Shown here one piece after another: positions 6,179-29,178 of a stretch of 64,000 nucleotides of DNA. Each line of letters opens with the position of its first letter. The first letter of the stretch is position 1. The notes beneath the pieces were generated by a model that was given only the letters and a program-made list of their open reading frames with translations, did not search any database and had not been told where the DNA came from. The DNA lies in the NCBI GenBank assembly GCA_024403355.1, contig JAKSRW010000012.1, positions 16,797-80,796 on the forward strand, written 5' to 3'. Origin of the DNA: Lachnospiraceae bacterium. Its GTDB lineage: Bacteria > Bacillota > Clostridia > Lachnospirales > Lachnospiraceae. A program made the translations under genes and the position numbers.

Positions 6179-6191
6179 TCCGACACCCCTA

Positions 6192-8535: not shown

Positions 8536-9993
8536 CTAATACTCTATAAATTTTAAATTACCCATTCCAAGAATTATTTTTTTTCCATCTAAAACAATAA
8601 TTTTAATCCCTTTTATTACTGCAGGTGATGATGCAATATTCCCCGATACCTTTAAAGCATTAATCATATTGCCAAACTCATTGTTCAAATGCCCTAAAAT
8701 GTTTCCATCCCTCTCTAGAATCATATAACCATTCTTTTCTTCTACAATAGAAACATAATATTCTCCATCTTTTATCACATCAAAATCAGCAATATCATTT
8801 TCATCTACGACCACGTGTGTAACACCATAAAGATTTCGGCAGCACCATCTTGACTTATTATCATACTTATACTCGTAATATTCTCTGTCAGGAATACTTA
8901 ATTCATACACTTCATCCATATTTGACAATAGTTTCCAAATTTGTAGATTATCTTTTTTACTTCCCCCTTTTAACACATTACTTGTAAGTACAATCTTTGC
9001 ATTTGTACTTGCAAATTTGTAATCATCCAAAACAACAATATTTACCCTATCATCATTCGAAAAGCCATGCTTTATTTCGCTCAAAAGCAACATACTTGAT
9101 ACATATGCTTTTTCAGCTAAATTATCTACCAATATTACATTTTTATCCGCAGAGAAATATTTTTCCTCCAGTTCTGTAAATTTATAGCAATTCCGTATGC
9201 GATTCCGTACACGTTCCTCATATAAATTCTTGTTTATGTCGTCAGTCTCCGTATTATTACCGGGAGTTTCTATGTTTTTTACAGCATGTCGAGATTCTTT
9301 TTTTTCTATCTTTTTTGTTTTTTTTCTTGCAATAGTTTTTCTATCAGCTACTTCATCAACATATCCCCAAATAGGCACCAATTCTTCATTTTGATAATCA
9401 TTGTTATCTGTAATTCTCCATTTATGACCGATAACAACCATTCTCCGTCCGTTTAACGGATTAATCATATAAGTATTGGTATCCTCTTTTGCATTATAAT
9501 CAGGTATTACCGGATTAGTATTGATTGGAAATTCTAATCCATCGTTCAATGGATTACATTCATACCTCATCATCTCCTCTTCCGATATCATATCGACTTT
9601 ATAATACAACGATAGCTTGCTTGGATTACCATATAGCAATCGCTCTTCGTCAGTCATACTCCACTCTTTAGCCATTTCATCTGAATAATCGGGATTACAC
9701 TCTAAAATATGACTACATTCTCTGTTAATACATGCACATACGACCTTATTCTTTTCTTTAGAATAACCAAAGCAAGGATCATTCTGGGCATAAATGCACC
9801 TACATTCTGTCTTTCTTATTCCATGTTGAACCTTTGATAAATTAGCAACTCTAAAGTCAACTTCTCTTCTTTTATATATAGCCCGAATGCACTTATACTC
9901 TACAACTTGGTCCACAAATGTTTGATCAAACATTGGATCTTCTTCTCTACTAAAGAACACATTGCTTCCAACAACAATATTGCTTTCAAACAT
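8536..9993 (-). CDS. hypothetical 485-aa protein; Cys-rich N-terminal region, no recognised domain
   Basis: RBS GAGGTGG. Third gene of a translationally coupled operon with an Hsp70-like ATPase. Contains a CRCIYAQNDPCFG…CACINRECSH cluster. Confidence 0.6.
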   Translation of the reverse strand: MFESNIVVGSNVFFSREEDPMFDQTFVDQVVEYKCIRAIYKRREVDFRVANLSKVQHGIRKTECRCIYAQNDPCFGYSKEKNKVVCACINRECSHILECNPDYSDEMAKEWSMTDEERLLYGNPSKLSLYYKVDMISEEEMMRYECNPLNDGLEFPINTNPVIPDYNAKEDTNTYMINPLNGRRMVVIGHKWRITDNNDYQNEELVPIWGYVDEVADRKTIARKKTKKIEKKESRHAVKNIETPGNNTETDDINKNLYEERVRNRIRNCYKFTELEEKYFSADKNVILVDNLAEKAYVSSMLLLSEIKHGFSNDDRVNIVVLDDYKFASTNAKIVLTSNVLKGGSKKDNLQIWKLLSNMDEVYELSIPDREYYEYKYDNKSRWCCRNLYGVTHVVVDENDIADFDVIKDGEYYVSIVEEKNGYMILERDGNILGHLNNEFGNMINALKVSGNIASSPAVIKGIKIIVLDGKKIILGMGNLKFIEY

Positions 9994-10004
9994 GAAACCA
10001 CCTC

Positions 10005-11477
10005 TTAATCAATCTCAGCATTCTTTTTAGGCGCTGGTGCGTCTAACTCATATGAAACTTTTAAATTTGAATATGTCCAAACTCTAAATACATCATCAGG
10101 CATACGATTAGAATGAATCTTTATCCTAAATACCATATCTGCATCTATATAACAGGATATCTGTAAATACTCATCACTGAACCCTCTTAATTTAACAGGA
10201 AAATATTCAACAAAAGACTTGTCCCCATCATCCTCACCATCAGAAAATACAAAACGTGCTTCCTTTGTTGCTTCAACAACACCAAATTTGATACACTTTT
10301 CTTCTGTCGGAACTCTTTGTCCTACTTTTAATAACGGATAAAATTTATTATTTGATTGAATAATTCCAATAGGTTTATTCAATGTATAACATCCTGGTCT
10401 ATAGGATATTTCAGCAGCTCCAGATCCTATATCCCACATCGCCGTACGCGGAAATAATAGTTTTTCTCTGTCAAAATATTCTAATAATTTAGACTGCAAT
10501 GGTCTAAGGCGGCTTGAACCGCCTTCGCAAATAATGCAATCTATGGACTCTCTATTCATTCCAGCTTCAGATAATGCTTTTAACAAGCAATCTATTGCCT
10601 GATCCACTTCATTCTCTATAATTTCATAGAAATAATCATAATCAATCTTTTCTAATGCTCTTCCAAATTTATCAAGCTTAGCTATTGAAATAGTTGCTAT
10701 ATCTTCGTCAGAAAGATTACACTTTGCTTGTTCACAAAGATTCAATAATCTAAGCTTAAATTCCGGGGCAAGATCATCATATGTAAAATTTTGATTTGTT
10801 TTTCTAGCCACTCTAGTACAGACTTTTTCTGCAATAATTCTATCAATATCGTTTCCTGCTAATGGCATACCCACTGTGGCAAGCTCATTAATGATATTGT
10901 TCTCGATTCGTAATACTACAACATCAAGAGTACCGCCACCCCAATCAAACACGGCTACGTTCTTATACTTTTTCATTTCGTTCAAACGACTACAGTATGC
11001 AGAAGTCGGCTCACTGATGAACATCTTAATCTTTATGCCAGCTTCTTTTGCAGCTCTACGAACACTATTCTTTTTCTTAGGAGAAAATCCTACTGGCACA
11101 GCAACTACAGCCTGGTCTAATTCCATCCCCCCCGCAGTCTTATCTTTAACATTTACCTTCAACGCTTTGAATAATTCAGTTGCTATATCTATCGGTGTCC
11201 ATTTTCTTCCAGCAATCTCCCATTCCTTATCTTCATCTATAACACTCTTAATAGATGAGAATACTCGGTAATCAGCAGAATCGGCAATTGTGTTTTTTGC
11301 ATCTAATCCAGTTTTAACCTCACCTGTTTTTTTGTTAATTGCCACAAAAGAAGGTAGTGGATTTCTTTCATCCTCACCTATTTTCCTTGCTTCACCTACA
11401 CGTTCGCCATTAATATCAGCAATGGCTACCACTGCGCTATTAGTTGTTCCAAAGTCAATTCCAAAATAATTTGCCAT
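10005..11477 (-). CDS. Hsp70/DnaK-superfamily ATPase (actin-like NBD) with a truncated or divergent C-terminal region
   Basis: N-terminal GIDFGTTNSAVV phosphate-1 motif. DWGGGTLDV phosphate-2 motif. A CEGGSSRLRP adenosine motif. Only 490 aa with no canonical substrate-binding domain or lid. Confidence 0.75.
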   Translation of the reverse strand: MANYFGIDFGTTNSAVVAIADINGERVGEARKIGEDERNPLPSFVAINKKTGEVKTGLDAKNTIADSADYRVFSSIKSVIDEDKEWEIAGRKWTPIDIATELFKALKVNVKDKTAGGMELDQAVVAVPVGFSPKKKNSVRRAAKEAGIKIKMFISEPTSAYCSRLNEMKKYKNVAVFDWGGGTLDVVVLRIENNIINELATVGMPLAGNDIDRIIAEKVCTRVARKTNQNFTYDDLAPEFKLRLLNLCEQAKCNLSDEDIATISIAKLDKFGRALEKIDYDYFYEIIENEVDQAIDCLLKALSEAGMNRESIDCIICEGGSSRLRPLQSKLLEYFDREKLLFPRTAMWDIGSGAAEISYRPGCYTLNKPIGIIQSNNKFYPLLKVGQRVPTEEKCIKFGVVEATKEARFVFSDGEDDGDKSFVEYFPVKLRGFSDEYLQISCYIDADMVFRIKIHSNRMPDDVFRVWTYSNLKVSYELDAPAPKKNAEID

Positions 11478-12574
11478 TATTCTACCTTAATTCCTTTTTT
11501 ATCTAATATCTTAAATATATTTTCTATTTTTACCCTGTATATCTCTCCTAATTGGATATCCATGTCATCTGCTTCCGATGCCTTAAAATCTCTATATTCA
11601 GCTTTTAATTCGTTAGCGATATCCTTTAAAAGAGCTCCCTCATCATTTTTCTTTAATGCATCAAAAGCGTCATTTATGGCCTTGCGCTCTTCAATTTCCT
11701 TTCCTGCTTCAACAAGACTCTTCTGTTGCTCTTGCATATTTCCATTCAATTCGCAAATTTGTCTTTCTAAATCATTCTTTTGTCTATTCAATTCTTCAAT
11801 TTGTAAATTGAGTTCAACTATATCTTTTTGGAGTTTATCCTCTCTGTAGACACCGTCTCTAAATTGCTTTTCGACTTTTGTATAATGTTCAAGAATAGAT
11901 TTTATATCATCTATCTTGCTCTTAGGTATTTGTTCTTCAATTCTCTCTCTTTCTATTGCATCTGCTGCTATTTTTTTCCCCTTATTCAACCACTTATTTA
12001 AATCATAATAATCTTTCAATGTGTCATTTTTATTAATAATATCTATGGCTATTTCAATAAAACTATTCACTATTTGGGGTGCAATTTTTAAATCTTCCCA
12101 TTCAGGAAACTTGTTATACTGTTTTTGCAATTCACTAAAACAATAATCTACTAATATAGGCCCATATACACTAGCAATTATAGGCTTTTTATCATCATTA
12201 ATTAAATTAATAAACGACCTAAAAACTCCTGGACAAATGACAATAACATTCTCATTTTTAATAAGCGTCATATATATCATTCCAACCAGTAATTTGACAG
12301 ACGCATTTTTTTTATTATCCTTAAACACAGTGTTTTTCTTTATTTTTTTCCAGCAATCCTGTATATCAGATTTTTGAGCTGACTCAAAATAATCAAAAAG
12401 CGCAGATGCCCTATCAATATCAATTCCATTAATTATAACTGATATAATTTCATCTGTTGTCTTTTCGTCATTTAAATACTTCTCTAATAATTCTGAATAC
12501 CTACGTGCAAGACTATAATCATCAAGATGATCTAAACATTCTTTCTGTAATTCTCTTATTTCATTTATTGACAT
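11477..12574 (-). CDS. hypothetical protein with a long C-terminal coiled coil (GrpE-like architecture?)
   Basis: 365 aa. Its stop overlaps the start of the Hsp70-like gene. Heptad-rich region between aa 200 and 330. Confidence 0.55.
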   Translation of the reverse strand: MSINEIRELQKECLDHLDDYSLARRYSELLEKYLNDEKTTDEIISVIINGIDIDRASALFDYFESAQKSDIQDCWKKIKKNTVFKDNKKNASVKLLVGMIYMTLIKNENVIVICPGVFRSFINLINDDKKPIIASVYGPILVDYCFSELQKQYNKFPEWEDLKIAPQIVNSFIEIAIDIINKNDTLKDYYDLNKWLNKGKKIAADAIERERIEEQIPKSKIDDIKSILEHYTKVEKQFRDGVYREDKLQKDIVELNLQIEELNRQKNDLERQICELNGNMQEQQKSLVEAGKEIEERKAINDAFDALKKNDEGALLKDIANELKAEYRDFKASEADDMDIQLGEIYRVKIENIFKILDKKGIKVE

Positions 12575-12810
12575 CTTACCAGTTCTCCTTTACAGTCATA
12601 AAAACATATCATTTTCAAAGTAACACATATTGCAAAAAACTATTATAATAATACCATAATTATATGATTTTTACAACTAAACAGACAAAAAACAGCCCAA
12701 ACAAAAACAAATCACATATATGCTCCTAACCAATTCAATATAAGAATTTTGTTCATTTCGTTGAATTGTTCTAACAATGCAACCATTTCCACTCAACGTC
12801 AAAAGCCTGC

Positions 12811-12845
12811 CGGCCACATTTGTCCCGCAGGCTTAAATACATATT
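12811..12845 (-). terminator. intrinsic terminator downstream of the acid-tail gene cluster
   Basis: Stem AAGCCTGC…GCAGGCTT followed by a T-rich tract on the minus strand. Confidence 0.45.
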
Positions 12846-12968
12846 TTCTCTTACCCCATATCCTCCACACATTTTTCAAAATGTGCACATCCAATACACA
12901 GCTTCCTGCACTGCCGCTCATTCCGTCGCAGGTTCCATAGCCAAAACAGCAGCCTGTTCATCATTTAC

Positions 12969-13412
12969 TCAGTAATTCTCCTCCCAGTAGTCATACGCAT
13001 CGTCCCAGTTGTCAAAATCATCCTCCCAGTCGTCGGCGAAATCATCGGCGTTGCTGTATTTATGTACATCGTAAATGTCACTGTAGTACACATGATAGTT
13101 TTTATCATTTGTGGAAGATGTATTTGTGTTCTTTTTCTTACCGTTTTTTTCCCATTCTTTTAGCTTTTGCATTCGCTCATAGCTTTCTTGACGTTTTTCT
13201 TCATCTTTCTTTATATGGTAATCACAGAATATTTCCTTCTCATCGCGGTAATTATCGCAGCCATCCTTAAGGCACTTTTTCGGAAGGTCCGAGAAAAACA
13301 TATGCCAAATATAAAACAGAATGGCTGCCAGAATCAGCCAGTCCGAAAGATCAAGCTTAGTTCCATTTTCCATGATTATGCTCTCCTCTTGCTGTAATAA
13401 ACCTCGTACCAA
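12969..13412 (-). CDS. single-TM protein with a C-x2-C…C-x2-H motif and a conserved aromatic-acidic C-terminal tail
   Basis: TM helix LILAAILFYIWHMFF. Tail IYDVHKYSNADDFADDWEDDFDNWDDAYDYWEENY. Paralogous to the 13585-14523 and 15889-16818 genes. Confidence 0.6.
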   Translation of the reverse strand: MVRGLLQQEESIIMENGTKLDLSDWLILAAILFYIWHMFFSDLPKKCLKDGCDNYRDEKEIFCDYHIKKDEEKRQESYERMQKLKEWEKNGKKKNTNTSSTNDKNYHVYYSDIYDVHKYSNADDFADDWEDDFDNWDDAYDYWEENY

Positions 13413-13588
13413 CGCGCCGTGCGTACGTAGGGCTTAGTCGGTGCATGCTCTGCGCAGCGCACCTCCTTCTGGAAGAAGGCGCAGGTCATATAACCCTCAC
13501 AATGCTCCCTGTCTGCCAGAAGCTTAGTGCATCGATTGATATCCGCATCCAAAGTGCAGATGTACTCTTCAGAATCTCCCATACTCAA
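13376..13588 (-). CDS. small Cys/His-rich protein (70 aa)
   Basis: Overlaps both neighbours (ATGA coupling at 13585-13588). Motifs CTKLLADREHCEGY and CAEH resemble the C-x2-H-x-C units of the upstream gene. Confidence 0.45.
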   Translation of the reverse strand: MSMGDSEEYICTLDADINRCTKLLADREHCEGYMTCAFFQKEVRCAEHAPTKPYVRTARWYEVYYSKRRA

Positions 13589-14523
13589 TAGTTATCCTCC
13601 CAGTAATCAAAGGCCTCATCCCAGTCATCAAAATCATCGCCCCACTCATCTGCGAAATCATCAGCATCGTAATAATTGTGTACATCATATGGATCCGAAG
13701 CCCCTGTCACTTGGCCCGAGCTGCTGCCGCTACTGCCTGTCGAAGACGAATATGTCGTATTCTTATAAGAATATGGCTTACTTTTATAAACGGTCGGTCT
13801 CTTCCAAGGATTATCACGGTAGTCGCTTATATGGAAAACCACACCCTCTACAACATTCACTGCAAATATTATGTCCCTGTCCTTGTAATAGTAATATATG
13901 TCAGAACTCTTATACCCTTTGCCTGTACCTATATGATTCCCTCCGTAGAAATACGCCGTGCCCAGGCCGGTACTTGAAAGATATCTCTCCGACATACCCA
14001 CATACGGCAATTCAACAGATTCTCCCTCGCATTTGTGGGTATAGCAATAATTGCTTGAACCGATTTTAACATTTTTACAGTTCGTGAAAACGCAGGTATG
14101 GTCCACACAATACTCGCCCCCTTGAATTTCCAATTTATCACAATCATATTCCGAACATTGTTTCTCTGCCTCAGCACGCCTAGCACTTATTTGTTTTTGA
14201 ACTCCATGATGATATTCACACAATTGAAAATACTCATCGTAAACTTCGTCACGGCAAGCAAACGCACCACAAGTATGAGCAAAACAATACTTTCTATTTG
14301 TCAGCTGCATTTTCATGCATAACTTTCCCCCGGAATATTTACATCTTAAGCCAAAAAAATATACAAGAAATCCCACTACAATAGCAACACCTATTACCAC
14401 AAGTATAACGATAGTCTTTTTGGCATTCTTTTTATTAAATTTTATATTGTCTACAGCTATCCAGATACCAAAGGACAAAGCCATAACACTCAGTATAATT
14501 ATATATATTTTTGTTTCCAACAT
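13585..14523 (-). CDS. two-TM protein with repeated C-x2-H-x-C-x4-5-C-x10-11-C-x2-H units and the conserved aromatic-acidic C-terminal tail
   Basis: Motifs YCFAHTC…CEYHH and YCVDHTC…YCYTHKC. Tail DPYDVHNYYDADDFADEWGDDFDDWDEAFDYWEDNY. Confidence 0.65.
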   Translation of the reverse strand: MLETKIYIIILSVMALSFGIWIAVDNIKFNKKNAKKTIVILVVIGVAIVVGFLVYFFGLRCKYSGGKLCMKMQLTNRKYCFAHTCGAFACRDEVYDEYFQLCEYHHGVQKQISARRAEAEKQCSEYDCDKLEIQGGEYCVDHTCVFTNCKNVKIGSSNYCYTHKCEGESVELPYVGMSERYLSSTGLGTAYFYGGNHIGTGKGYKSSDIYYYYKDRDIIFAVNVVEGVVFHISDYRDNPWKRPTVYKSKPYSYKNTTYSSSTGSSGSSSGQVTGASDPYDVHNYYDADDFADEWGDDFDDWDEAFDYWEDNY

Positions 14524-14690
14524 ATTAGTTGCACAATCCTTTCCAAATACGATATTTCATCATCCAACAGAACTCCGCAGCAACTTAAAAATCATAATCG
14601 TCAGAATCCTGACTCGCGTCCTCTACAGCAGAATATCCTCTTCCTACATCAGAGCTGTCCGGTCATCAGAATTTCCTCCTCATATTATTT

Positions 14691-14939
14691 TTATTTAGAC
14701 TCATAATTCTGATACTTATAACAATCCCAGCAATATATCACGTCACTTCTCCAACAGTTATCCCCACAGCAAATACATTTTTTCTCATCCTTACCATTCT
14801 GCTTCTTTTTCAGATCAACAAATACATTTTTACTTCTGTTAACAGTCATATTAATCATATTTTTCCTCCACAAATACATTTTCCAGTTTCTTAAACTATA
14901 CTCACCTAAGAATTCTCTTGTAATCCTCCCGATATTCAA
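14691..14939 (-). CDS. small Cys-rich protein; the true start may be an internal Met
   Basis: Motif CICCGDNCW…YCWDCY. Confidence 0.3.
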   Translation of the reverse strand: MNIGRITREFLGEYSLRNWKMYLWRKNMINMTVNRSKNVFVDLKKKQNGKDEKKCICCGDNCWRSDVIYCWDCYKYQNYESK

Positions 14940-15249
14940 ATGATAACATGATACAAGGGAGTTTTATCGGACTCTGAGAAACATTTAAAGAACATTTTAT
15001 AACTTCTATGTCGCCACTAAGCCGTCCTCCGCTGCGATGCCATTGTCATTATTACCACCAGCAGGTCATCTATCGGGCCCGGGCAGGCATCAATAGGTGA
15101 TATAACATATAAAATAGCTAATACAAGTAACATACCTTTCATTCCATTCTTCATAACGATTTCCTCCTGGTAAATAATTTTCTTTTTCGTTTTAGATTAT
15201 AGCGAATACTTCATAACCCTTTTTGCAAATAAACTGTAATAATTTTGAA

Positions 15250-15405
15250 TCAGTAGCCATAGCCACGTACTTGCTTACGCGTGTCAGCCTTTAACTCATT
15301 TCTGGACGGACGAGTGGCAAGCTTGTGATCCATAGTTCCCATTTTAATGTTAATCATAACTCTGTAGCGTTTAGCACACTGCTTCTTCATATTCTTCTCA
15401 AGCAT
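15250..15405 (-). CDS. 51-aa basic protein of unknown function
   Basis: Strong RBS GGAGGAAATTACA-ATG. Sequence MLEKNMKKQCAKRYRVMINIKMG… Not in the ORF track because it is under 60 aa. Confidence 0.3.
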   Translation of the reverse strand: MLEKNMKKQCAKRYRVMINIKMGTMDHKLATRPSRNELKADTRKQVRGYGY

Positions 15406-15888
15406 TGTAATTTCCTCCGTTTAGTTTGAACTTTTAACTTTGTCAACAAATAATGGTTTCATCGTTTCTTTTGTTGTTATGTAGCTATTATAAAGCAGAA
15501 TAAAAAAGCCTTTTCGTAAAAAAGTGTAAAAAAGAAAGCCTTTCCTAAAAACAGAAAAGGCTATTTTTCATAAAATATCAAATTGTGATTCGTTCAATGT
15601 CCTGGCGGGCTTCATCGGTTTTCTAGCCAAGCCCATCGCCTCCCAAACGGGCCTTTAGTAAACTTTTAAGCTCAGTAACGGCCTCTTCGCCGGAGTGATA
15701 CCTTCCGGTATCAACTAATCTATTCTCAAATTCATCAAACAAATCTGCCTGACTATCATAGTATAATTTCCTCAAAGCTGAACTACTTCTATAAAAGCCT
15801 GTAACAATCTACGTTTTTTTAACAGTTCCTGCCATTCTTTCATACGTAATGTCCTCCCTTTACTTGATCGATTTGCCACAATCCCCCC

Positions 15889-16818
15889 TCAATAATTATC
15901 CTCCCAGTAGTCAAAGGCATCATCCCAGCTGTCGAAATCGTCCTCCCATTCATCCGCGAAATCATCAGCACTGTAATAATTATGGACATCGTAAGGGTCC
16001 GCATAGAATGAATAACCCGAATAGCTATTTTTTTGTCCACCGGAGCTTCCGGATGAATTATTCTTATGCTTGTTATTATCTTCATCCAGCTTATATCTGT
16101 AGTCATTCGTAGAATAAACATAACCATACTTTGCATCCGCATGAAAAATCTGTTTTCCATCAACCACCCAGTCATAGGCCATATGCCTCCCGCCCCCTAT
16201 AATATCCATTTCTATCTTGGATTTGCTCGGTACTCCCAGTGAGCAAACATCAAAATATATCGTTTTCATACCAGCTCTGGGTAACTCGCCCGCATAGTGT
16301 TTTTCCTCACTGTAGAACCTGATATTCTCCGGATTCTTTTGTTTTAAAGCAATGACATGCGATTTAACTTCATAAAAAAAGTCCTGATACTTTCCTGAGT
16401 ATTCCCAGTTAAAATAGTGATCCACTATCTCAAATATGTCCCTGTAATTAACATTCTCTACAACTGTCTCGGAATATATAGAATCTAAAACTTTACTGTT
16501 ATCCTCCAAAAAGATATCCAACCAATAAAGGGCTTCGGCATCTTTATTCCCATATTTAGCCATTGTATCTAATTCTATTCTTTTATCGCACTCAAGATAT
16601 TCCCCTTTCTTAAGTGTATTATATGCTTCCTCGAGCTTATAATCGTCAGTGTTTATCCGGTAATAACGAACAGTTAATGCAATAATAACTATCAATACAA
16701 CCGCAGCAACCGCGATATAACACCTTATAATCTTACGCTTAGAAGCTGTTGTGCGTCCCTCTAAATTAAGCATTCCAAGCGAAATTACACCTATTATTCC
16801 CATTATTATTCCCGCCAT
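15889..16818 (-). CDS. two-TM membrane protein with the conserved aromatic-acidic C-terminal tail; third paralog
   Basis: Tail DPYDVHNYYSADDFADEWEDDFDSWDDAFDYWEDNY. The middle domain differs from the other two paralogs. Confidence 0.65.
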   Translation of the reverse strand: MAGIIMGIIGVISLGMLNLEGRTTASKRKIIRCYIAVAAVVLIVIIALTVRYYRINTDDYKLEEAYNTLKKGEYLECDKRIELDTMAKYGNKDAEALYWLDIFLEDNSKVLDSIYSETVVENVNYRDIFEIVDHYFNWEYSGKYQDFFYEVKSHVIALKQKNPENIRFYSEEKHYAGELPRAGMKTIYFDVCSLGVPSKSKIEMDIIGGGRHMAYDWVVDGKQIFHADAKYGYVYSTNDYRYKLDEDNNKHKNNSSGSSGGQKNSYSGYSFYADPYDVHNYYSADDFADEWEDDFDSWDDAFDYWEDNY

Positions 16819-16832
16819 TCAAGATAACCCCC

Positions 16833-17393
16833 TCAGATCCTCGACAGCACTGCAGGCATCGCCTCACCATTGATATAAAGCCTCGGTATCCCGTCATGTG
16901 TAACCCTGATGCGGTACTGGGCCAGGCTGTATTCAGTACCCTCCAGGGAAATAGTCTTCGTAGCCCTGCCCATATCGAAGCTGCTCGCGCCGAAGCAAAT
17001 CAGATATTTCGGGGCATTTCCCTGCATGATGATACAGTGACCTATGGGACGGCGGCTGATTCTCGGACCGGCGGCCGGAACCTCCGGCTCAGGCTGATAA
17101 CGATTAATAAAATCCTGCAGCTTTTCGCAGATTTCTGCTACTGTTCCTGCCCCGCAGCCGCGAATCGAATTAATCTCGCCAAGCCGCTTCGCCAGATCTC
17201 CTATTGTAAATATCCCGCCTCTTTTCAGGCAGTGTTCAGCCCTCGGCTGAAACTCCAGCGTATCTACCCCCTCCTTGCAATCATAAACCTTTCGAAGTTC
17301 GGACTCGTCCAGTCCCACAGCTTCATTTCCCTTTGCATCCGATGCTTTCTTATCAACCTTATTATTCAATCTGCTCTTCATGTGATTTCCCAT
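16833..17393 (-). CDS. standalone RNA polymerase alpha-subunit C-terminal-domain (alpha-CTD)-like protein
   Basis: The segment LEFQPRAEHCLKRGGIFTIGDLAKRLGEINSIRGCGAGTVAEICEKL matches the RpoA CTD helix-hairpin-helix signature (…SVRSANCLK…I…GDL…L…GKKSL.EI). Lies 15 nt upstream of the 15889-16818 gene. Confidence 0.6.
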   Translation of the reverse strand: MGNHMKSRLNNKVDKKASDAKGNEAVGLDESELRKVYDCKEGVDTLEFQPRAEHCLKRGGIFTIGDLAKRLGEINSIRGCGAGTVAEICEKLQDFINRYQPEPEVPAAGPRISRRPIGHCIIMQGNAPKYLICFGASSFDMGRATKTISLEGTEYSLAQYRIRVTHDGIPRLYINGEAMPAVLSRI

Positions 17394-17974
17394 ACCTTTC
17401 CACGATTTTCGCCTGCATAGCCTTCAAACAGTATCCATAGATAATCATCCTCATAGTCTGTCCGCAGAACCGTCCGCATAACTGCCGCGTGCGTGGCCCA
17501 TTCGTCATTTCCGGTCCCTCCGAAAGCCCCTTTCCCTAAAAAAGGGCGCAGTTAATAAAGCCGGGCAAAACCCGCGCTAATAAGCATAAAATCCTTGGGG
17601 TTACTTTCGAAATGAAAATGATTCTGTAAATTAGATCCTTTTGAAACGTTTTAACGATGTCGACTTCGTTGTGATAGTAATAATAACACCCTTTTAGAGT
17701 GAAATCAAGACCCATTCAGACAATACGTAAGCATATTCATTTCATATTGTCATTGAAATCCACCCCGTTTAATACAAATTGTAAGTATAACTTTCATATG
17801 CTCCTGCATACACTCCTACACCTTCCCTTCAAAACTCGTAACCACTTATGCCGGTCTCGGACTGCTTTTTATACATTCCCGGCTACCTGCAATCCACCTT
17901 ACCGGCTGCCCATGCAAAAAGCACCCTTCAGTCAGCCGGTGAGCCTACCCTCGGGGTGCTAATAAATCAACCTG

Positions 17975-18529
17975 TTATTTATTTGTATCTGCCGATTCTT
18001 TCTCTGCTTCAGGTGCTTTTCTTTCTTCAGGCTCTTTTCCTTCTTCTGCCTTCATATGCTCGTATCTGATACCTGCCGCCTCATCCTTCACTGTCGACAT
18101 GATAATATAGGTGGAAATACTTTTTATTACCTTTCCGTTTTGTCTGTAAAGCCTGTTTATCAGCTGATTGAAACTTGCATTATATAAATAGACGCCCTCT
18201 GCCATAATGAGGTCATTACCGCTTATAACGTGAACTTCCTTTATCATCCTTTCGCGGGATAAAATCTCAAGAACGCTCTCATAATTGTCCGGATATACAC
18301 CCAGCATCATCACAAACCTTGTCCCCATTTCAGGTACAGCCTTTTGGTTAATCACGGTCTTATATCCGCATATCACGCCCTTAGTTTCCAGGGCATCCAT
18401 CCGGGCCTTTACTGCCACTCGGGAAAGTCCTACCCGCTCTCCTATTTCAGAATAGGTCAGACGCGCATCGTTTTCTATTACATTCAGTATTTTATTATCC
18501 TTTTCATCAAGTTCAGAAATATCTATCAT
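17975..18529 (-). CDS. Lrp/AsnC-family transcriptional regulator
   Basis: N-terminal HTH (DNKILNVIENDARLTYSEIGERVGLSRVAVKARMDAL) plus a RAM domain. Confidence 0.85.
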   Translation of the reverse strand: MIDISELDEKDNKILNVIENDARLTYSEIGERVGLSRVAVKARMDALETKGVICGYKTVINQKAVPEMGTRFVMMLGVYPDNYESVLEILSRERMIKEVHVISGNDLIMAEGVYLYNASFNQLINRLYRQNGKVIKSISTYIIMSTVKDEAAGIRYEHMKAEEGKEPEERKAPEAEKESADTNK

Positions 18530-18530
18530 A

Positions 18531-18780
18531 ATTCCTCCTAATGCAACGAATGCAATGAGTTGCTCATGGAGTAGATTGGTGCGCTTTTTGCACCAATCTT
18601 GCAGTTTGAAAATTTATTTTCAAACTTAACCTCATGCTAAGAGCGTAGCGATTAGCTAATGGTTTAGATTGGTGCGCTTTTTGCACCAATCTCGCAGTTT
18701 GAAAATTCATTTTCAAACTTTAACCTCCGACTAAGAGCATAACAATTAGCTAATGCTTGATATTGGTGCTTTTTCATGCA
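18531..18780. repeat. Two tandem copies of the compound-palindrome repeat; it contains TGAAAAT-N-ATTTTCA, an Lrp/AsnC-operator-like palindrome
   Basis: GTTTGAAAATTTATTTTCAAAC at 18604-18625 and GTTTGAAAATTCATTTTCAAAC at 18705-18726. AGATTGGTGCGCTTTTTGCACCAATCT hairpins. A leading TCCTCCTAATGCAACGAATGCAATGA motif. Confidence 0.6.
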
Positions 18781-18818
18781 GATTTACCGGCCTACGCCCT
18801 CTTCTGTAAATCCGCTGA

Positions 18819-20114
18819 TTAATAAAGCCTTGCCAGCGCAGCATCGAATTCCTTCTTTGCGGCTTCAACATCGATAGTTGTATAAATTCCGTTATCATAG
18901 AGAATATTTCCGTCTACCATTGTCATGATGACATCCGAACCCTGCGCCGAATATACCAGCAGATTCAGAATATCAAATGCAGGATACATATGGGGCGCAT
19001 CCATTGAGACTGCGATAATATCTGCCTTTTTGCCAACCTTCAGCTCTCCCGTATCCTTTCTTCCGAGCGCCTTTGCACCATTGACGGTAGCCATTTTCAG
19101 GATGGTTTCTGCAGGGGTAACGGTAGGATCAAGTACCGTAGGCTTTGAAATCATTGCGGCCATATGAAGCTCTTCAAACATATTCAGGTTATTATTGCTT
19201 GCCACACCGTCTGTACCGATAGCCAGATTCACACCCTTTGAAAGCATCAGGGGTACGCGTGCAAAGCCGGATGCCAGCTTACAGTTGCTGGCGGGATTAT
19301 GTACTGCAGTGGTTTTTTTTGCAGCCATTATTTCCATATCTTCATCAGTTACCCATACACAGTGCGCCGCATAAACCTGCTCATCCAAAAGTCCGCATTT
19401 ATCCAGATACTGAATCGGTGTGAGCCCGCCATGGCGCTCCATGCACTCCTCATGCTCCTTTTTAGTCTCGGAAACATGAATGTTTACAGTCTTGTGAAGA
19501 GAGGAATTTGCCTCTGCGATTCTTCTGACAAAGGCCTCATTTGTGAGATATTCCGAATGCAGACAGAACTCTGCCTGTACTCGTCCGCTCTCATCCTTCC
19601 AGTTGTTTACGAATTCCACGCACTCATCAAATCTGTGAGGCGGAATCTCAGCCTTATCGGAAAATGCCAGACCCACACGGCAGATATTTGCCTTCATGCC
19701 CGCTGCCTTCAGCACCCCGCCGCTCGCATAAGGGAAATCATACATCTCCGAAACAAGTGTTGTACCGCTTCGAAGCATTTCTATAACAGCCCATTTCTCG
19801 CCCGCTGCGATGTCCTCAGGCTTCATTTTGTCTTCCACAGGGAAAATGGCCTTATTCAGCCAGTCCTGAAGCGCAAGTCCGCTGCCTGCACCTCTCAGAA
19901 GTGTCATCGGTCCGTGGCCGTGCGCATTTACCAGTCCGGGCATCAGAATTGCGCCCTTCATATCACGCACCTCGTCATAAGTGCTTTCATCAGCCTCGCA
20001 GCCGATATAGTCTATAATATCATCATTTATGCCAACCGCGCCGTTCTTAATTACCTCAAAAGCTCCGTTATCATCAGTCGACACTACCATTGCATTCTTT
20101 AACAGTCTCTTCAT
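18819..20114 (-). CDS. amidohydrolase, 5-methylthioadenosine/S-adenosylhomocysteine deaminase-like (MtaD / chlorohydrolase family)
   Basis: Metal-binding HGH motif near the N-terminus (GLVNAHGHGPM), plus downstream H and D ligands typical of the family. Confidence 0.75.
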   Translation of the reverse strand: MKRLLKNAMVVSTDDNGAFEVIKNGAVGINDDIIDYIGCEADESTYDEVRDMKGAILMPGLVNAHGHGPMTLLRGAGSGLALQDWLNKAIFPVEDKMKPEDIAAGEKWAVIEMLRSGTTLVSEMYDFPYASGGVLKAAGMKANICRVGLAFSDKAEIPPHRFDECVEFVNNWKDESGRVQAEFCLHSEYLTNEAFVRRIAEANSSLHKTVNIHVSETKKEHEECMERHGGLTPIQYLDKCGLLDEQVYAAHCVWVTDEDMEIMAAKKTTAVHNPASNCKLASGFARVPLMLSKGVNLAIGTDGVASNNNLNMFEELHMAAMISKPTVLDPTVTPAETILKMATVNGAKALGRKDTGELKVGKKADIIAVSMDAPHMYPAFDILNLLVYSAQGSDVIMTMVDGNILYDNGIYTTIDVEAAKKEFDAALARLY

Positions 20115-23464: not shown

Positions 23465-25990
23465 TTAGATGTCCTCCGAAATATCCTCCGCCAGAACAAC
23501 ATTATCCTGCTTATGCTCGCCGCCCTCCATGGTCATCTTTATAAAGGCCTTGGCATTACGCTGTTCAACACTGTCAATTACCTTTGCAATATACTTCTCG
23601 GTTCTTGCAAGTCCGCCTTCTTCCGTTGCCCTGCAAATGCATCTGATTCTCTTGGTAAGGAGCTCATAGGCTGCATTTTCCATCTGAAGTCCGGCCTTCT
23701 CAAGCTTGTATTCAGCAAGTCTTAACAAATCATCCTGTCCGAAATTCGGGATGGTAATTCTAAGCGTGAAGGCTTCATTAAGGCTTGTATTGCCCTTGAA
23801 AATTTCAGAAAGATTTCTTCTGTAATCCATCAGTACAATGGATGCCGAATCGCCGTACTTCTTACAGATATCAGTTATTTCAGCGGTGGCCTTGGCCGAA
23901 AGATTTCCTGCTCTGTCTACCGCAAAGCAGCGGCTTACAAGCTTGGGCGCTCGGTCTGTAATGCTGATTTCGTTTACCTTTGCGGCATCTGTCCAGATAA
24001 TGGGTGTATTTCCCAGAATACCGGCGGTCTTCATAATGCCCGAAAGTCCGTTAACAATTACCTTCTTGCCGGCGCCTCTTTCTCCGAATACGCAGTAGCT
24101 GATGCTGCCGCCCTTTGGATTAAGGATTGCCTCAAGCACGCCAAGCAGCTGTCCCGCAATTTCAGGCTGATATGCAAAGAAACCGAAATAGCGCTCCATG
24201 GTGGTTCTGGTTTCGTTAAAGAAGGCTGCTACGCAGCTGTTCGGTCTGGGTTCAATCGGCGCAAGCTTTTCCGACCTGTGAATTTCATGCTCTGAATTCG
24301 CTGTGCGCGGTCTGTTATCCTCGTCAAAAATCGCACCGACCAGGGATGCGAGATATTCCTCTTCGCTGCTTTTGGGCTGTTCAGGCGCTGCCTTTTGGCG
24401 CTCTTCCGCCTCCGTCTCTGCTTCAGCACGCTTTTCAGCCTCTGTCTGCGCACGCTCTTCTTCCTTACGGCGCTCTTCAGCCTCAATCTCAGCTCGCTTT
24501 TCTGCCTCTGTCTGTGCACGCTCTTCTTCGGCTCTTCGGCGCTCCTCTGCCTCAATCTCAGCTCGCTTCTCTGCCTCTGTCTGTGCACGCTCTTCTTCGG
24601 CTCTTCGGCGCTCTTCTGCCTCTCTTTCGGTGCGGTGCTGCTCTACCTCAAGCTGGCGCTGGCGCTGCTTCTCGCGCTTACGCTCACGGCGGCTCTTTTT
24701 ATCATTCTTATTATGCGCTGCGGGCTCATTCAATGAACCAAGCTCACGTTCAACCACCTCAAGCAAGGCTGAATTGTGGCTCTCCTCCGCAGGCTCTTCG
24801 GCCACAGCATCTAAAACTCCGGTCCATATCTTAATGTCATCATCAGCAGCCTTTTTATTATCGTCTGCGGCTCCGGCTAAAGCGCTTTTTTCATTATCCT
24901 TTACGCCGGCCTCAGCCTGATTCTGCTGCCTGCTTCTATCCCTGTCATTGACCGTAACGGGTCTGTTAGCCAGCTCATTTTCTTCTCTGAGCGCAGCCTC
25001 TACAGCCTTTGCTATATCATCGTCTGTCAGCTCACCGCTAACGCTTCCAAGCATCTCCTCAACAGTAGCCGCAGATTTGGGCTCTGCCGCTTTCTCAGTG
25101 GGCTCAGGCTGCTTTGTGTCTGCTGCAGCCACAGCCGCATTTTGCTCTGCCCCGGCATTCTTCATTTCCTCTGCCTGCTCCTTAGCTTCTATCTCAGCCA
25201 GCGCCTCCTTGGTGATCCAGCCGCCCGCAGCAAGCTTTGTCTCGCCCATATTCTGCTCAGGTCCGGCCTCTGCCTGCATTGCCTCCCTGCGCTCACGGCG
25301 TCTTGCGCGGCGTTCCTCCTCGGCAGCCTTCTTTGCCGCCTCCTCATCATTATTTTCCTGAGGAACAGGCTTTACAAGCTTGTCCGCAACAGTCTTTTCA
25401 GACATTTCCTTAAAGGTCAGCTCACCCTTATAATATGCCTTAAGAGCCTTCGCACGCTCCACAAATTCACCGTCGCCAAACCAGAGAATAACCTCATCAC
25501 AGATGCTTACACACTTATCAACCTCACCCATCTTGTGATATACCTTCGCAAGCTCATAGCCCCAGTTATCAAAAAACTCGGCATCCTTCAAAGCCTCAAG
25601 GCTGGCCGCAAGCTCCTCAAGAGGCTTATTCTTCAGACGGTCAATCTTGTATCTGAAAATATAATTGTAATAGTCCCCGGCAGCAAGCTCCTTATACTCC
25701 TTATAGTATTCTTCAGCCTCATCTGCCTGCTTAAGTCTGATGGAAAGATTTACAAGCTCCATAACAACACGGCGGCTCTTCTGACGCTCATACATAATTT
25801 CAAAGCATTCCTTGGCCTTGCTCAGCATACCGTTATGAAGATAGACCTGTGCCAGAACGCTGCAGTCAAAATTTCCCTTGATTTTTCTGGGATCCATTCC
25901 GTCAGTCAGTTCAAGAGCCTCCTCATTTCTGCCCTGACGCAGCATCTCCCTGATTTCCTCGATTTTTACGTAGTTCTTATACTTGTCCAT
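23465..25990 (-). CDS. TPR-repeat protein with a central charged tandem-repeat region and a C-terminal domain bearing a degenerate P-loop (SpoVK/CbbX-like?)
   Basis: N-terminal TPRs. 23-aa repeats RAEIEAEERRRAEEERAQTEAEK. GERGAGKKV in place of a Walker A motif. Confidence 0.6.
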   Translation of the reverse strand: MDKYKNYVKIEEIREMLRQGRNEEALELTDGMDPRKIKGNFDCSVLAQVYLHNGMLSKAKECFEIMYERQKSRRVVMELVNLSIRLKQADEAEEYYKEYKELAAGDYYNYIFRYKIDRLKNKPLEELAASLEALKDAEFFDNWGYELAKVYHKMGEVDKCVSICDEVILWFGDGEFVERAKALKAYYKGELTFKEMSEKTVADKLVKPVPQENNDEEAAKKAAEEERRARRRERREAMQAEAGPEQNMGETKLAAGGWITKEALAEIEAKEQAEEMKNAGAEQNAAVAAADTKQPEPTEKAAEPKSAATVEEMLGSVSGELTDDDIAKAVEAALREENELANRPVTVNDRDRSRQQNQAEAGVKDNEKSALAGAADDNKKAADDDIKIWTGVLDAVAEEPAEESHNSALLEVVERELGSLNEPAAHNKNDKKSRRERKREKQRQRQLEVEQHRTEREAEERRRAEEERAQTEAEKRAEIEAEERRRAEEERAQTEAEKRAEIEAEERRKEEERAQTEAEKRAEAETEAEERQKAAPEQPKSSEEEYLASLVGAIFDEDNRPRTANSEHEIHRSEKLAPIEPRPNSCVAAFFNETRTTMERYFGFFAYQPEIAGQLLGVLEAILNPKGGSISYCVFGERGAGKKVIVNGLSGIMKTAGILGNTPIIWTDAAKVNEISITDRAPKLVSRCFAVDRAGNLSAKATAEITDICKKYGDSASIVLMDYRRNLSEIFKGNTSLNEAFTLRITIPNFGQDDLLRLAEYKLEKAGLQMENAAYELLTKRIRCICRATEEGGLARTEKYIAKVIDSVEQRNAKAFIKMTMEGGEHKQDNVVLAEDISEDI
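24400..24640. repeat. ~3.5 tandem copies of a 69-nt coding repeat inside the 23465-25990 gene
   Basis: Direct DNA repeat encoding the 23-aa EAE/RRA-rich unit. Confidence 0.7.
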
Positions 25991-26805: not shown

Positions 26806-29178
26806 TTACAATTCCCGGTAAAAGCTCATTGTAGTCCTAAGCTCTGCCGGCAGCTCTGCACCGTTTTTCTCGATTGCCCGGTAACGAAGCTCCAGCTCAT
26901 GGATTTTCTTTACACGCTCGCGGCCGTTTTTCGAGAAAGCCTCCTCGTAAAGAGGCTGTCTTTGCAGCTGCTTTCTTACCTCACTCTTAAAAGGGCAATA
27001 GGTCGCCAGAATCTCACGGGCAACCTTATTCAGACGTATCGAGCCGGCCGACTCCGCCTTCATCCAAAGCTCGTAATCCATCGTAAATATTCTGCCGAGC
27101 GAATTTCTTCCGCGCTGAATCTGAAGCTTCAGCTTCTCCTTTTTCTCCTCGGAAAGAGCCTTATTTTTACGGAAAAACTGTATATAATCAGAATACTCCG
27201 CCGTAAGCGACTGGTACTGGATATTGTTCCAGTTTGCACCCTGTACGGTTTTGCAAAGCGCCCAGCGGAACTCTCCCATAGCCTTTATCAGCATGTCACG
27301 AAGCGAGGAATAGGTTAACATCGAGCTCATAAAACGGGCCTGACTGTCTCTTTTTCTTCCTGTAATCTCCTGCCACATGATTACATTCGAGCCTACCGTC
27401 GGACAGAGAATGATATCGGGGAATACCTCCTTCTGGATAATTTCCCTCTCGATTCCAAGCTCCGGCTTCACATAAAGTGCCTCACGGTAGAATATCGAAT
27501 AATCAAGCTCAGACAGCTCCAAAATCATGTTATTTATGCGCTTCGGAGAATTGTACGCATCCAGAATATCACCTATCAGCTGCTCCGAATGAAGTATCGG
27601 AACAAACACTGAAAGCTGTCCGTTTACGATACGGTTCACCTTGCTGAACACATTTTTTATCTCATAATCGAGCTTCATCGCCCCGTTGGTCTGAAGCTCC
27701 TTTTCCTTTGCATCATCTATTCTGCCCTGCTTTTTCAGTTCACGCAAAACCTCTGCATAATCCTGGCCGAGCTCATTTCTCGAGGGCTCCTTTTCACCCT
27801 TGCAGATGGCCATCAGCCACTGGCGCATAGTGTAAATATGGCAGGGACTGTTGAAGGTAACGGGCGTAATCCTCAGAAACTGCTCCAGCTCCTCTTTTTC
27901 CAAAAGCCTCTCGCTGAGATAGCCGTAGTCAAGAAAAAGCTCCACCGCCTTAGGAAGTCTTTTCTGACCGAAGGAAGCACCGAAGGCCATCGCATAAAGC
28001 TGGTAAAAATGCTCGCTAAGCCCCTTCCTGAGGGACTTTAAGCGGTCATCCTGTACCGACCTGTCTGGCAGTGCGATAAACTGCTCCAGCATAGGTCTGA
28101 GCTCTGCCACAGCCGCCTCCGGATATCTTGCGAACTTAACAATCTGGTCAAAGGACCCTCGAAGTGACGCCAGCTCCGAAGCAATGTCTGCGGGCTCATC
28201 GCTTTTTTCCCTTTTATTTGTTCTTATGTCTATTCCCTTTGCGGCCTTTTCACGCAGCTGAGCTATTCTGACCTCATCCGTCTCCACCATAAGCTCACGT
28301 CCCGTGCGCGCCGCAAAAAAGCTTTTAACCTCTTCGCCCAGCTCATAACAGCCTTCCGCAAGAGCCATGGCATTCGGTGCCGCAAGCCCGTTTCTTTTCG
28401 CATCCGAGCAAAGCACCAGAAGATTTTTATAAAAACAATCGGATGATTTTCCATACAGAAGATTGAACAGATACTGTATGTTGTCCGCCCTCTCATTGCA
28501 GGCATCGGTCAGAATTTCCTGTACACGGTAAAGCTCCTTAAGCAGTCTGGCTGTGATAAGTACACTTGAAGAATAGAAGTTTTTTATTGTCTCATAGGGC
28601 AGCCTGTCATATTCATGAAGAAGCTCCGGGGTGAAATCAGAATACTCACAAGACCGGTCCGAATTCTCCGCATTCTCATCCAGACGGCTGATGTCAGGCA
28701 TCGGTTCAGGCACGCAGCCTGTGCTTTTTGCCTCAGCCAGATACTCCGCATAGCTTTCCTTAAGAAAGCCCTCCAGCCTGTTCTCAAGCGCTGTCAGAGC
28801 CTTAAGCTGCCTTTCAAGCTCATTTACGAATTTTATCTCAACATATGCCGCAGGACCGCTATATTCCCTGCGCTGGCTCAGAAATTCCTCTAAAAAATCC
28901 GGATTATCAAAAGCGAAGGCATAAATCACGGAGGCTTCCTCGGTTATGGCACAGTAGGAATAGGCCCCGCTTGCAAAATCGCTCACGAAAAGAAGCGCCC
29001 CTGCGCCTACAACAGTTGAAAAGCTGTTATTGTAGACACGGACCTTACCCTTCAGAACAAGATATACCGCTTCTGCCTTTTCCCCTTCTATTGCCAGCAG
29101 TTCTCCTGCCGCCGGCTGATTGTTAGCGTTTAAAATCATCCTTCCTCCTAATGCAACGAATGCAATGATTTCTGCCAA
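26806..29178 (-). CDS. large cyclic-nucleotide-binding (cNMP/Crp-like) domain protein with a ~600-aa uncharacterised C-terminal region
   Basis: N-terminal beta-barrel cNMP-binding signature. The likely true start is the Met at 29139, 14 codons in (MILNANNQ…), which sits just downstream of the repeat-borne SD motif GCATTAGGAGGAAGG. Confidence 0.6.
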   Translation of the reverse strand: MAEIIAFVALGGRMILNANNQPAAGELLAIEGEKAEAVYLVLKGKVRVYNNSFSTVVGAGALLFVSDFASGAYSYCAITEEASVIYAFAFDNPDFLEEFLSQRREYSGPAAYVEIKFVNELERQLKALTALENRLEGFLKESYAEYLAEAKSTGCVPEPMPDISRLDENAENSDRSCEYSDFTPELLHEYDRLPYETIKNFYSSSVLITARLLKELYRVQEILTDACNERADNIQYLFNLLYGKSSDCFYKNLLVLCSDAKRNGLAAPNAMALAEGCYELGEEVKSFFAARTGRELMVETDEVRIAQLREKAAKGIDIRTNKREKSDEPADIASELASLRGSFDQIVKFARYPEAAVAELRPMLEQFIALPDRSVQDDRLKSLRKGLSEHFYQLYAMAFGASFGQKRLPKAVELFLDYGYLSERLLEKEELEQFLRITPVTFNSPCHIYTMRQWLMAICKGEKEPSRNELGQDYAEVLRELKKQGRIDDAKEKELQTNGAMKLDYEIKNVFSKVNRIVNGQLSVFVPILHSEQLIGDILDAYNSPKRINNMILELSELDYSIFYREALYVKPELGIEREIIQKEVFPDIILCPTVGSNVIMWQEITGRKRDSQARFMSSMLTYSSLRDMLIKAMGEFRWALCKTVQGANWNNIQYQSLTAEYSDYIQFFRKNKALSEEKKEKLKLQIQRGRNSLGRIFTMDYELWMKAESAGSIRLNKVAREILATYCPFKSEVRKQLQRQPLYEEAFSKNGRERVKKIHELELRYRAIEKNGAELPAELRTTMSFYREL

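Follow-up and report, generated by a model that had tools for sequence, protein, structure and literature searches.

Directly upstream of a gene for an AsnC/Lrp-family regulator in a Lachnospiraceae bacterium, a short palindromic sequence is repeated in tandem, and this raises the question whether the repeats are operators of the adjacent regulator or belong to something else. The locus lies in a stretch of 64,000 nucleotides of contig JAKSRW010000012.1, here called the window. The original prediction had read the palindrome as an Lrp/AsnC-type operator, marking an autoregulated gene and a dispersed regulon, or else as a mobile repeat that carries regulator sites and a Shine-Dalgarno (SD) sequence with it. 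From the analysis described here we consider it likely that the array is made of a lineage-restricted, modular and amplifying repeat which forms a structured 5' leader and supplies the ribosome-binding site of many unrelated genes.

The repeated palindromes are present in tandem as originally described. The sequence GTTTGAAAAT-N2-ATTTTCAAAC occurs three times in the window (1087-1108, 18604-18625 and 18697-18718), where shuffled sequences are expected to contain none. Beside it stands a second perfect hairpin, GATTGGTGC-N7-GCACCAATC, at 18574-18598 and 18667-18691 and, with a loop of 8 nt, at 1113-1140. Upstream of the minus-strand open reading frame (ORF) 17975-18529 the tandem period is 93 nt. 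This region, 18530-18780 on the minus strand, consists of 2.6 head-to-tail copies of a unit of about 95 nt, and the 3' end of the array is found 4 nt from the ATG. Where two copies had been predicted, there are two full units and a partial third. Read on the lrp strand, the segment 18530-18818 contains in this order the stop codon of an amidohydrolase gene (18819-20114, minus strand), a short hairpin, unit C, unit B, unit A and the ATG. The gene-proximal unit A (18530-18627, minus strand; 113.6 bits with a covariance model) comprises hairpin 1 (18603-18626), hairpin 2 (18573-18599) and a tail helix, helix 3 (18535-18571), and its 3' end is TTAGGAGG-AATT, followed by the ATG at 18529-18527. Unit B (18628-18720, minus strand; 97.8 bits, helix 3 at 18628-18664) has the same hairpins 1 and 2 together with a variant 'B' tail, AACCATTAGCTAATCGCTACGCTCTTAGCATGAGGTT. 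Unit C (18721-18780, minus strand) is the 5'-most remnant of the array and retains the 3' half of hairpin 2 and a B-type tail ending in GGAGGTTA. The regulator gene itself (17975-18529, minus strand) encodes a protein of 184 amino acids with an HTH_AsnC-type match (E = 7e-14) and AsnC_trans_reg, and it takes its SD and 5' leader from unit A.

Across the family the unit is about 93-98 nt long, or about 134 nt where an optional third hairpin is included. The units (93-134 nt) are multi-copy and non-coding, with a GC content of 29-43% and fold z-scores of -5 to -7. Read in the direction of the downstream gene, a unit begins with hairpin 1 (AGUUUGAAAAU..AUUUUCAAACU; in its full form AAGTTTGAAAAT-AA-ATTTTCAAACT), which is separated by a linker of 3-6 nt from hairpin 2 (AGAUUGGUGC-loop-GCACCAAUCU; in its full form AGATTGGTGC, a loop of 7-8 nt and GCACCAATCT). 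The optional 40-nt hairpin, TTAATGTTCCAAATTTA-ctt-TAAATTTGAAACATTAA, is located between hairpin 2 and the tail in some units. The tail is of type A (ACTCCATGAGCAACTCATTRCATTCGTTGCATTAGGAGG) or type B (AAACCATTAGCTAATCGCTACGCTCTTAGCATGAGGTT). Its helix is built from CUCC-A-UGAGCAAC, an 11-nt loop and GUUGC-A-UUAGGAG, in which an anti-SD (CUCC) pairs with the unit's own SD (GGAG), so that the SD is half buried. The inverted repeats detected are these internal hairpins. Direct reading of the alignment gives no terminal inverted repeats, since the two ends of the unit, AAGTTTGAAAAT... and ...CATTAGGAGGAA, show no complementarity. Furthermore, no constant direct repeat flanks the solo copies at 1085 in the window and in L019 and L022 (numbers with L denote the loci compared with the window); at most there is 'AA' plus an SD-like sequence on both sides. 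We found no sigma-70 promoter inside the unit, and 18530-18820 on the lrp strand holds no promoter-like site.

Several lines of comparative evidence argue for the three helices. In an alignment of 18 units (A1), with 32 pairs in the three helices, 97.2% of the cells are paired, compared with 29-45% when the partners are slid by 1-3 columns, and RNAalifold, unaided, gives the same three helices. Double (compensatory) changes are seen in 13 of the 32 pairs, and the observed values were reached by none of 500 shuffles. The informative comparisons are those between the two tail types and with the units of L012, a short contig (3.4 kb) binned as Acutalibacteraceae. In tail B and in the L012 units every pair of helix 3 is kept, with changes including C-G to A-U and A-U to U-A. 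The SD is paired as CUCC/GGAG, GUCC/GGAC or AACC/GGUU across the tail types, and pair 68-93 shows a flip from G·U to U·G. Helix 3 has 19 G·U cells and 2 A·C cells and can therefore form on the sense strand only; the symmetric hairpins 1 and 2 could form on either. Taken alone, helix 3 has a folding energy of -11.7 kcal/mol with the A tail and -9.6 kcal/mol with the B tail, with GGAG paired in both. Four compensated pairs belong to hairpin 2 and two to hairpin 1, including the variant GTTTGATAG..CTATCAAAC. The GTTTG/CAAAC core of hairpin 1 is invariant in 18 of 18 units, which leaves room for some sequence-specific factor that would recognise it, and the loops and linkers of the units vary freely. 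A small tail hairpin, AUGAG-CAA-CUCAU, appeared in one minimum free energy fold and was rejected, since the B-type tail is unable to form it. Hairpin 2 and the CTTAGTTTGA that follows it resemble an intrinsic terminator when read on the antisense strand (for example L023 455-429, L019 5355-5329 and L022 647-673), and in the window copy at 1085 this terminator-like orientation faces serA. Judged from this arrangement, the units could damp antisense or convergent transcription.

The placement of the units relative to genes is strict. They are found solo or in head-to-tail arrays of up to five (the five-unit array is at L023 4213-4688). All units of every array are direct, with no inverted pairs, and their orientation is always that of the next gene, both on the related contigs and in the second strain described below. 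The original prediction had treated random orientation of the copies as an argument against regulation by the Lrp-like protein. The orientation is strictly gene-directed, and this would reflect the role as a leader, not Lrp binding. At 13 of 14 sites the last unit ends in GGAGG, AA, two further nucleotides and the start codon, the exception being the Acutalibacteraceae contig L012, where the distance is 7 nt. Among ORFs of at least 100 amino acids the spacer from GGAGG to the start codon is 4 nt in 11 out of 11 cases; in genes without the element in the same DNA the spacers are spread over 2-12 nt. The genes served in this way are unrelated (at least 11 in the related metagenome-assembled genomes, MAGs) and have no functional theme. 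They include genes for the AsnC/Lrp regulator, a 777-aa protein with a weak cNMP-binding-domain match, an OmpR-type response regulator, a PfkB kinase, a dCMP deaminase, a Wzx-like flippase, a PlsC-type acyltransferase, a TPR protein and lipoproteins.

Three arrays have promoter-like hexamers at a distance of 13-96 nt on their 5' side: the five-unit array is preceded at 13 nt by TTGACG-17-TAAAAT, a second array at 22 nt by CTGACG-17-TATAAT and a third at 96 nt by TTGAAA-17-GATAAT. Because such hexamers are found upstream of these arrays and none inside the unit, the arrays are most simply read as 5' leaders. At lrp the array may alternatively be a leader between two cistrons, with the amidohydrolase gene as the upstream one. 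An SD-like motif stands 2-9 nt before the first unit in about 7 of 11 arrays, and the junction between units within an array, GGAGG-AAGT-TTG-A, mimics the gene junction GGAGG-AANN-ATG-A.

We scanned one genome per species for the hairpin-2 pattern and obtained 24 loci. True copies are located on seven contigs of the Lachnospiraceae MAG JAZQNG01 and one contig of JAZQNB01, and L012 carries a B-tail variant; the remaining loci are unrelated chance hairpins. The pattern yielded 14 seed units from the window, JAZQNG01 and JAZQNB01, besides the related variant in L012. An nhmmer profile and a covariance model (R1) detected about 20 units in the window and these loci, with no further match in 183 kb. 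Scanning the JGI metagenome contigs for the junction of hairpins 1 and 2 gave 42 loci, all of them chance matches according to nhmmer, and there were no true copies in viral contigs (two patterns), PLSDB plasmids or INPHARED phages. No Rfam 15 family matched at its gathering score, and at E<=10 only chance-level matches were returned. With units that are mostly more than 85% identical and copies confined to a few MAGs, the repeat family is real, young and narrowly distributed.

Related arrangements were seen at comparable sites. L001 (covariance model match at 55-158, within 1-200) carries a cousin repeat in tandem, with the same three-helix plan and different stems: hp1' is GTGTGAAAAAT..ATTTTTCACAC, hp2' is CAATTTGAG..CTCAAATTG and the tail is CCATTAGCC..GGCATGAGGATTA. 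The inverted repeat GGGAGTGTGAAA/TTTCACACTCCC, which flanks the window copy at 1085, resembles hp1' of L001. Two related species show further examples. Upstream of a dCMP-deaminase orthologue, L086 (2116-2343) has other hairpin-rich repeats with GC-rich stems, including a minimal CCTCCATTAGGAGG anti-SD/SD hairpin, and upstream of an lrp orthologue L070 (1-121) has 24-nt direct repeats and a AACTCGTTGCATTAGGAG tail. The L001 cousin and the hairpin repeats of L070 and L086 at like sites hint at a broader class.

Differences between strains and an empty site give information on how the units come and go. In a second strain (JGI contig L067/L072) the Lrp protein is identical and serA is 99% identical, and the region between the amidohydrolase gene and lrp is 196 nt long versus 289 nt in the window, one unit fewer. 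Unit B is the one not present, and the single unit of that strain has a B-like hairpin 1 and an A tail; the junction is consistent with unequal recombination within identical hairpin-2 segments. The same two strains also differ in the lrp-serA segment, which is about 15.5 kb in the window (~2400-17975) and about 7 kb in L072 (2826-10001), and the window has an extra block of low GC (33-37%) at about 8-16 kb, a strain-specific insertion or deletion. In L022 a solo unit precedes the dCMP-deaminase gene. Four independent assemblies (L082-L085) contain a 91%-identical orthologue with no element in front of it. There the gene directly follows a kinase gene, and the empty site reads GGGAGAAGCG-ATGGAAAGA (GGGAGAAGCG-ATG). 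The filled site in L022 reads GGGAGAAGGAGAAA, the unit and AAAA-ATGGAGAGA (AAAA-ATG). Comparing the empty with the filled site therefore places the unit within the native SD-ATG spacer, with the native SD kept 5' of the unit.

The other copies predicted in the window proved to be a full unit and two fragments. In the full solo unit (1085-1183, plus strand; 110.8 bits) the loop of hairpin 2 has 8 nt and the tail is of type A. The genes on the two sides of this unit converge, and it stands within a terminator-like hairpin formed by GGGAGTGTGAAA (1075-1086) and TTTCACACTCCC (1198-1209), with T-runs flanking both sides. No credible gene follows, the sole reading frame being a 99-codon ORF antisense to serA, and so the repeat can occur away from gene starts. 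We found no empty counterpart of this site: the second strain is filled too, and a relative with a 94% serA differs in synteny. A 30-nt SD tail (29140-29169, minus strand; 92% match; ATCATTGCATTCGTTGCATTAGGAGG-AAGG) lacks the anti-SD arm and abuts the ATG (29139) of the gene for the 777-aa protein. At 32635-32667 (plus strand, 84% match) there is the 5' half of hairpin 1 with the linker; the TGA within its GTTTGA is the stop codon of a DHH-family gene (31056-32642), and the start of a TIR-domain gene (32703) is located 36 nt downstream. The product of this last ORF (32703-35807, plus strand, 1034 aa) combines an N-terminal TIR or ThsB-like TIR domain with beta-propeller (WD40/PQQ-like) repeats and is, judging from its domains, a candidate anti-phage defence protein.

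Does the adjacent AsnC/Lrp protein then bind the palindrome of hairpin 1, with autoregulation and a dispersed regulon as the outcome? The neighbouring gene is a true member of the AsnC/Lrp family, two palindromes stand upstream of it, and the GTTTG...CAAAC core does not change between units. Archaeal Lrp-type proteins including FL11 select 13-bp sites of the form abcdeWWWedcba, and FL11 was crystallised on TGAAA[AAT/ATT]TTTCA (PMC2715240); the TGAAA and TTTCA pentamers of the element match the FL11 half-sites (PMC2715240). The predicted fit to TGAAA-W3-TTTCA fails on the spacing. The palindrome of the element is 22 bp long (10+2+10) with an even centre, its half-sites are 6 nt apart (TGAAA-N6-TTTCA, W6, around a 2-nt centre), and no TGAAAWWWTTTCA with up to one mismatch is found in or near the element. 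Moreover, the regions upstream of the lrp orthologues in L068 and L071 (65-66% identity) are ordinary and lack the palindrome (the RNAP-alpha-CTD gene downstream of the window lrp is retained in L068; L071 does not show it), and at the L070 orthologue (74% identity) the repeats are different, with only the SD tail similar. Decayed fragments excepted, the palindrome is found only together with the remainder of the unit, and the units stand in leaders that reach up to the start codons of genes which are unrelated and share no amino-acid theme. The variant GTTTGATAG..CTATCAAAC keeps the stem with the bases between the half-sites changed, the 93-nt spacing is fixed by the unit and not by operator phasing, and at the three sites checked the element lies downstream of promoter-like sequences. 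On this sequence evidence we regard the operator explanation as very unlikely. As the orthologues lack the palindrome, the genes served are diverse and the units are in leader position, lrp is best read as one insertion site among many, and an autoregulatory Lrp operator is hardly to be expected there. The AsnC/Lrp gene is thus a neighbour of the repeat, and a functional partnership between the two is only putative. The MITE-like or REP-like alternative (MITE, miniature inverted-repeat transposable element; REP, repetitive extragenic palindrome) of the original prediction fared better, since the element is dispersed, amplifying and SD-carrying, though without terminal inverted repeats or clear target-site duplications.

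Our best reading, drawn by analogy, is that a leader repeat lands in SD-ATG spacers and would act like BOX or REP elements. Such a repeat would spread by recombination or by insertion at SD-like sequences. The 3' end of the unit (GGAGGAA) would recreate an SD-like target, new units landing behind old ones, and this would account for the head-to-tail arrays, for their strict orientation and for the SD-like sequences on their 5' side. The repeat may be tolerated or exploited because a strong SD is restored, and the change of copy number between strains is consistent with recombination between units. In the mRNA, the stable hairpins 1 and 2 may serve as 5' stabilisers or processing sites, and helix 3 would set the availability of the strong SD and so tune translation initiation of the downstream gene. 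In arrays of several units the internal SDs may attract 30S subunits in the manner of STAB-SD, and translation through a unit could open helix 3.

Several points weigh against this leader reading. No transposase, recombinase or RAYT (REP-associated tyrosine transposase) partner turned up, though no systematic search for a transposase or RAYT was made, and the copies examined showed neither terminal inverted repeats nor clear target-site duplications. The invariant 4-nt spacing to the native ATG fits no known insertion mechanism, and a model of SD microhomology explains it only if the targets already read GGAG-AA-NN-ATG. The position of the arrays as leaders is deduced from consensus promoter matches and geometry, and many of the 18 aligned units are close paralogues, so that the shuffle test treats them as more independent than they are. 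As hairpins 1 and 2 are perfect DNA palindromes and the core GTTTG/CAAAC does not vary, recognition of duplex DNA by some protein is possible. Finally, the data are mostly fragmented MAGs with many copies at contig ends, which makes genome-wide counts and the independence of sites uncertain, and the Acutalibacteraceae contig L012 could be mis-binned.

A bolder version of the leader reading, to which we give a rather low probability, is a self-propagating 'translation-initiation cassette' which homes into the SD-ATG spacer, places a masked SD at a fixed 4 nt and multiplies in place; the homing may proceed by SD microhomology or by some recombinase. About as doubtful is the view that the repeat is purely selfish DNA with no role in mRNA, its hairpins serving transposition in the manner of REP/RAYT or IS200/IS605. 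A Y1 transposase would then recognise the single-stranded DNA hairpins, and the SD would survive only because insertions abolishing translation disappear. Much of the evidence would suit it: the perfect palindromes of hairpins 1 and 2, the narrow lineage distribution, the polymorphism in copy number and presence, the modular mosaic with an optional third hairpin and two tail types, and the insertion of window copy 1085 into a terminator-like hairpin. It does not account for helix 3, which is strand-specific through its G·U pairs on the sense strand and whose SD/anti-SD pairing is kept by covariation; this points to a transcript, or at least one strand, that is under selection. Moreover, the orientation is gene-directed in 100% of cases, inverted pairs of REPs (REPINs) were not seen, and no transposase was found, although no systematic search was made.

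Some other trans-acting factor could use the repeat as a platform, such as an RNA-binding protein or small RNA on the leader or a DNA-binding protein on hairpin 1, which would make the genes a mobile co-regulated set. The stem core of hairpin 1 stays invariant although hairpin 2 and helix 3 have diverged, and many genes have one leader in common; since the loops and linkers are variable, the genes show no functional theme and no candidate factor was identified, we judge this distinctly improbable. Still less credible is a leader peptide that starts at the TTG in AAGTTTGA, 4 nt after the preceding GGAGG, and reads a small ORF such as MKINFQTARLVQKAHQSTP. The SD-N4-TTG geometry equals the SD-N4-ATG of the real genes, and all such upstream ORFs end before the next start codon, but insertions and deletions in the loops of hairpins 1 and 2 and in the third hairpin shift the frame, and the ORFs have 7, 9, 11, 16, 19, 20, 21, 28, 41, 47, 50 or 52 codons with differing sequences. 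A conserved leader peptide was rejected for this reason, as neither frames, lengths nor sequences are conserved between units. A riboswitch or other ligand-sensing leader is the least probable of all, scarcely to be expected at this locus. In its favour, the unit is a structured 5' leader with an SD-sequestering helix, but Rfam gave no match even at the permissive threshold and near-identical copies stand in tandem arrays before unrelated genes. There are no conserved unpaired nucleotides and no multi-helix junction, and the variable loops and linkers argue against a ligand-binding pocket.

Among known repeats, the pneumococcal BOX element, composed of boxA-boxB(n)-boxC, and the related small interspersed repeats RUP and SPRITE (Croucher et al. 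2011, PMC3049150) offer the closest comparison. Like them the present unit is short, non-coding, modular, highly base-paired and restricted to a narrow lineage (PMC3049150). As with boxB, the number of tandem modules varies between strains, and neither BOX nor the present unit encodes a transposase; BOX is co-transcribed with its neighbours and expected to affect their expression (PMC3049150), which we predict for the present unit too. In BOX, however, the internal boxB alone repeats, between end modules that pair with each other, whereas here the whole three-hairpin unit repeats and its modules (hairpins 1 and 2, the optional third hairpin and tail A or B) fold independently. The present unit is also co-oriented with the gene, ends 4 nt from the start codon, and both carries and masks an SD, and there is no sequence similarity between the two. 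REP elements and the bacterial interspersed mosaic elements (BIMEs) built from them, enterobacterial repetitive intergenic consensus (ERIC) sequences and Correia elements are palindromic intergenic sequences which are transcribed and have a mosaic build of modules, and they are able to change the stability or the processing of mRNA (background in PMC3049150). The present unit is likewise palindromic and a mosaic of modules. REPs of enterobacteria and pseudomonads lie mostly 3' of genes or between cistrons, typically as inverted pairs (REPINs) mobilised by RAYTs, and Correia and ERIC elements have terminal inverted repeats and target duplications. None of the REP, ERIC or Correia elements is known to supply an SD at a fixed distance from the start codon. 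Unlike REPINs, the present units are all direct with no inverted pairs. With MITEs the unit has in common that it is small, AT-rich, highly base-paired, multi-copy and non-coding, but it has neither terminal inverted repeats nor a clear target duplication.

The resemblance to FL11-type Lrp/AsnC operators lies in an AT-rich palindrome with TGAAA...TTTCA beside an AsnC/Lrp gene. These operators have 13 bp and a 3-bp W centre (PMC2715240); the present half-sites are 6 nt apart around an even centre, and orthologous lrp genes do not share the site, which belongs to a 95-nt repeat that occurs at unrelated genes. Among 5' leaders, the mRNA stabilisers of Firmicutes (5'-proximal hairpins, and STAB-SD of Bacillus thuringiensis cryIIIA) and SD-sequestering leaders such as RNA thermometers are single and gene-specific. 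On paper the present element is alike in its stable 5' hairpins, the extra SD-like sequences in arrays and the anti-SD/SD helix, but it is a repeated, amplifying cassette. The repeat thus fails the defining features of MITEs, REPINs and BOX, though working like small structured interspersed repeats, and no prior description of an SD-carrying tandem leader repeat in Lachnospiraceae or Firmicutes was evident among the titles and abstracts listed by the literature search.

Besides the leader repeat, the window contains a T-box leader (Rfam RF00230, 100.6 bits) at 3680-3882 on the minus strand, upstream of an Aminotran_5 (serC-like) gene (2436-3518) and the serA-like gene (1238-2404), which encodes a 2-hydroxyacid/3-phosphoglycerate dehydrogenase. 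A direct repeat of at least 300 nt with 95% identity (4144-4443 and 7911-8210, also 4106-4136 and 7874-7904), with its copies 3.77 kb apart, probably represents duplicated upstream regions of two neighbouring genes. Coding repeats are found as two blocks of about five 69-nt tandem repeats with 81-85% matches (54625-55587, minus strand, in an 807-aa ORF at 54387-56810), as a 90-nt repeat at 52336-52581 and as 69-nt repeats at 24423-24622 in an 841-aa ORF. An 82-nt direct repeat with 93% identity (61758-61839 and 63919-64000, 2.16 kb apart) ends in a GGGGCTTGAACCCC hairpin and may be another intergenic repeat family. For three window proteins no exact-protein matches were on record.

Small interspersed repeats are usually dismissed as intergenic clutter. 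Here the translation-initiation region of many genes is replaced by a common, covariation-supported and SD-masking leader whose copy number varies between strains, and its precise placement at start codons raises the question of how the insertion site is chosen. The arrays also fragment MAG assemblies, with many copies at contig ends, and they can mislead the prediction of operators and regulons, as happened at this locus. If the repeat affects translation or mRNA stability, it would be a natural portable expression module in abundant uncultured gut bacteria and a source of rapid strain-level variation in expression. If the reading as a self-propagating translation-initiation cassette were true, dozens of unrelated genes under one structured leader would form a mobile post-transcriptional regulon, and cousins such as that in L001 (55-158), perhaps with those in L070 and L086, would represent a wider undescribed class in gut Clostridia.

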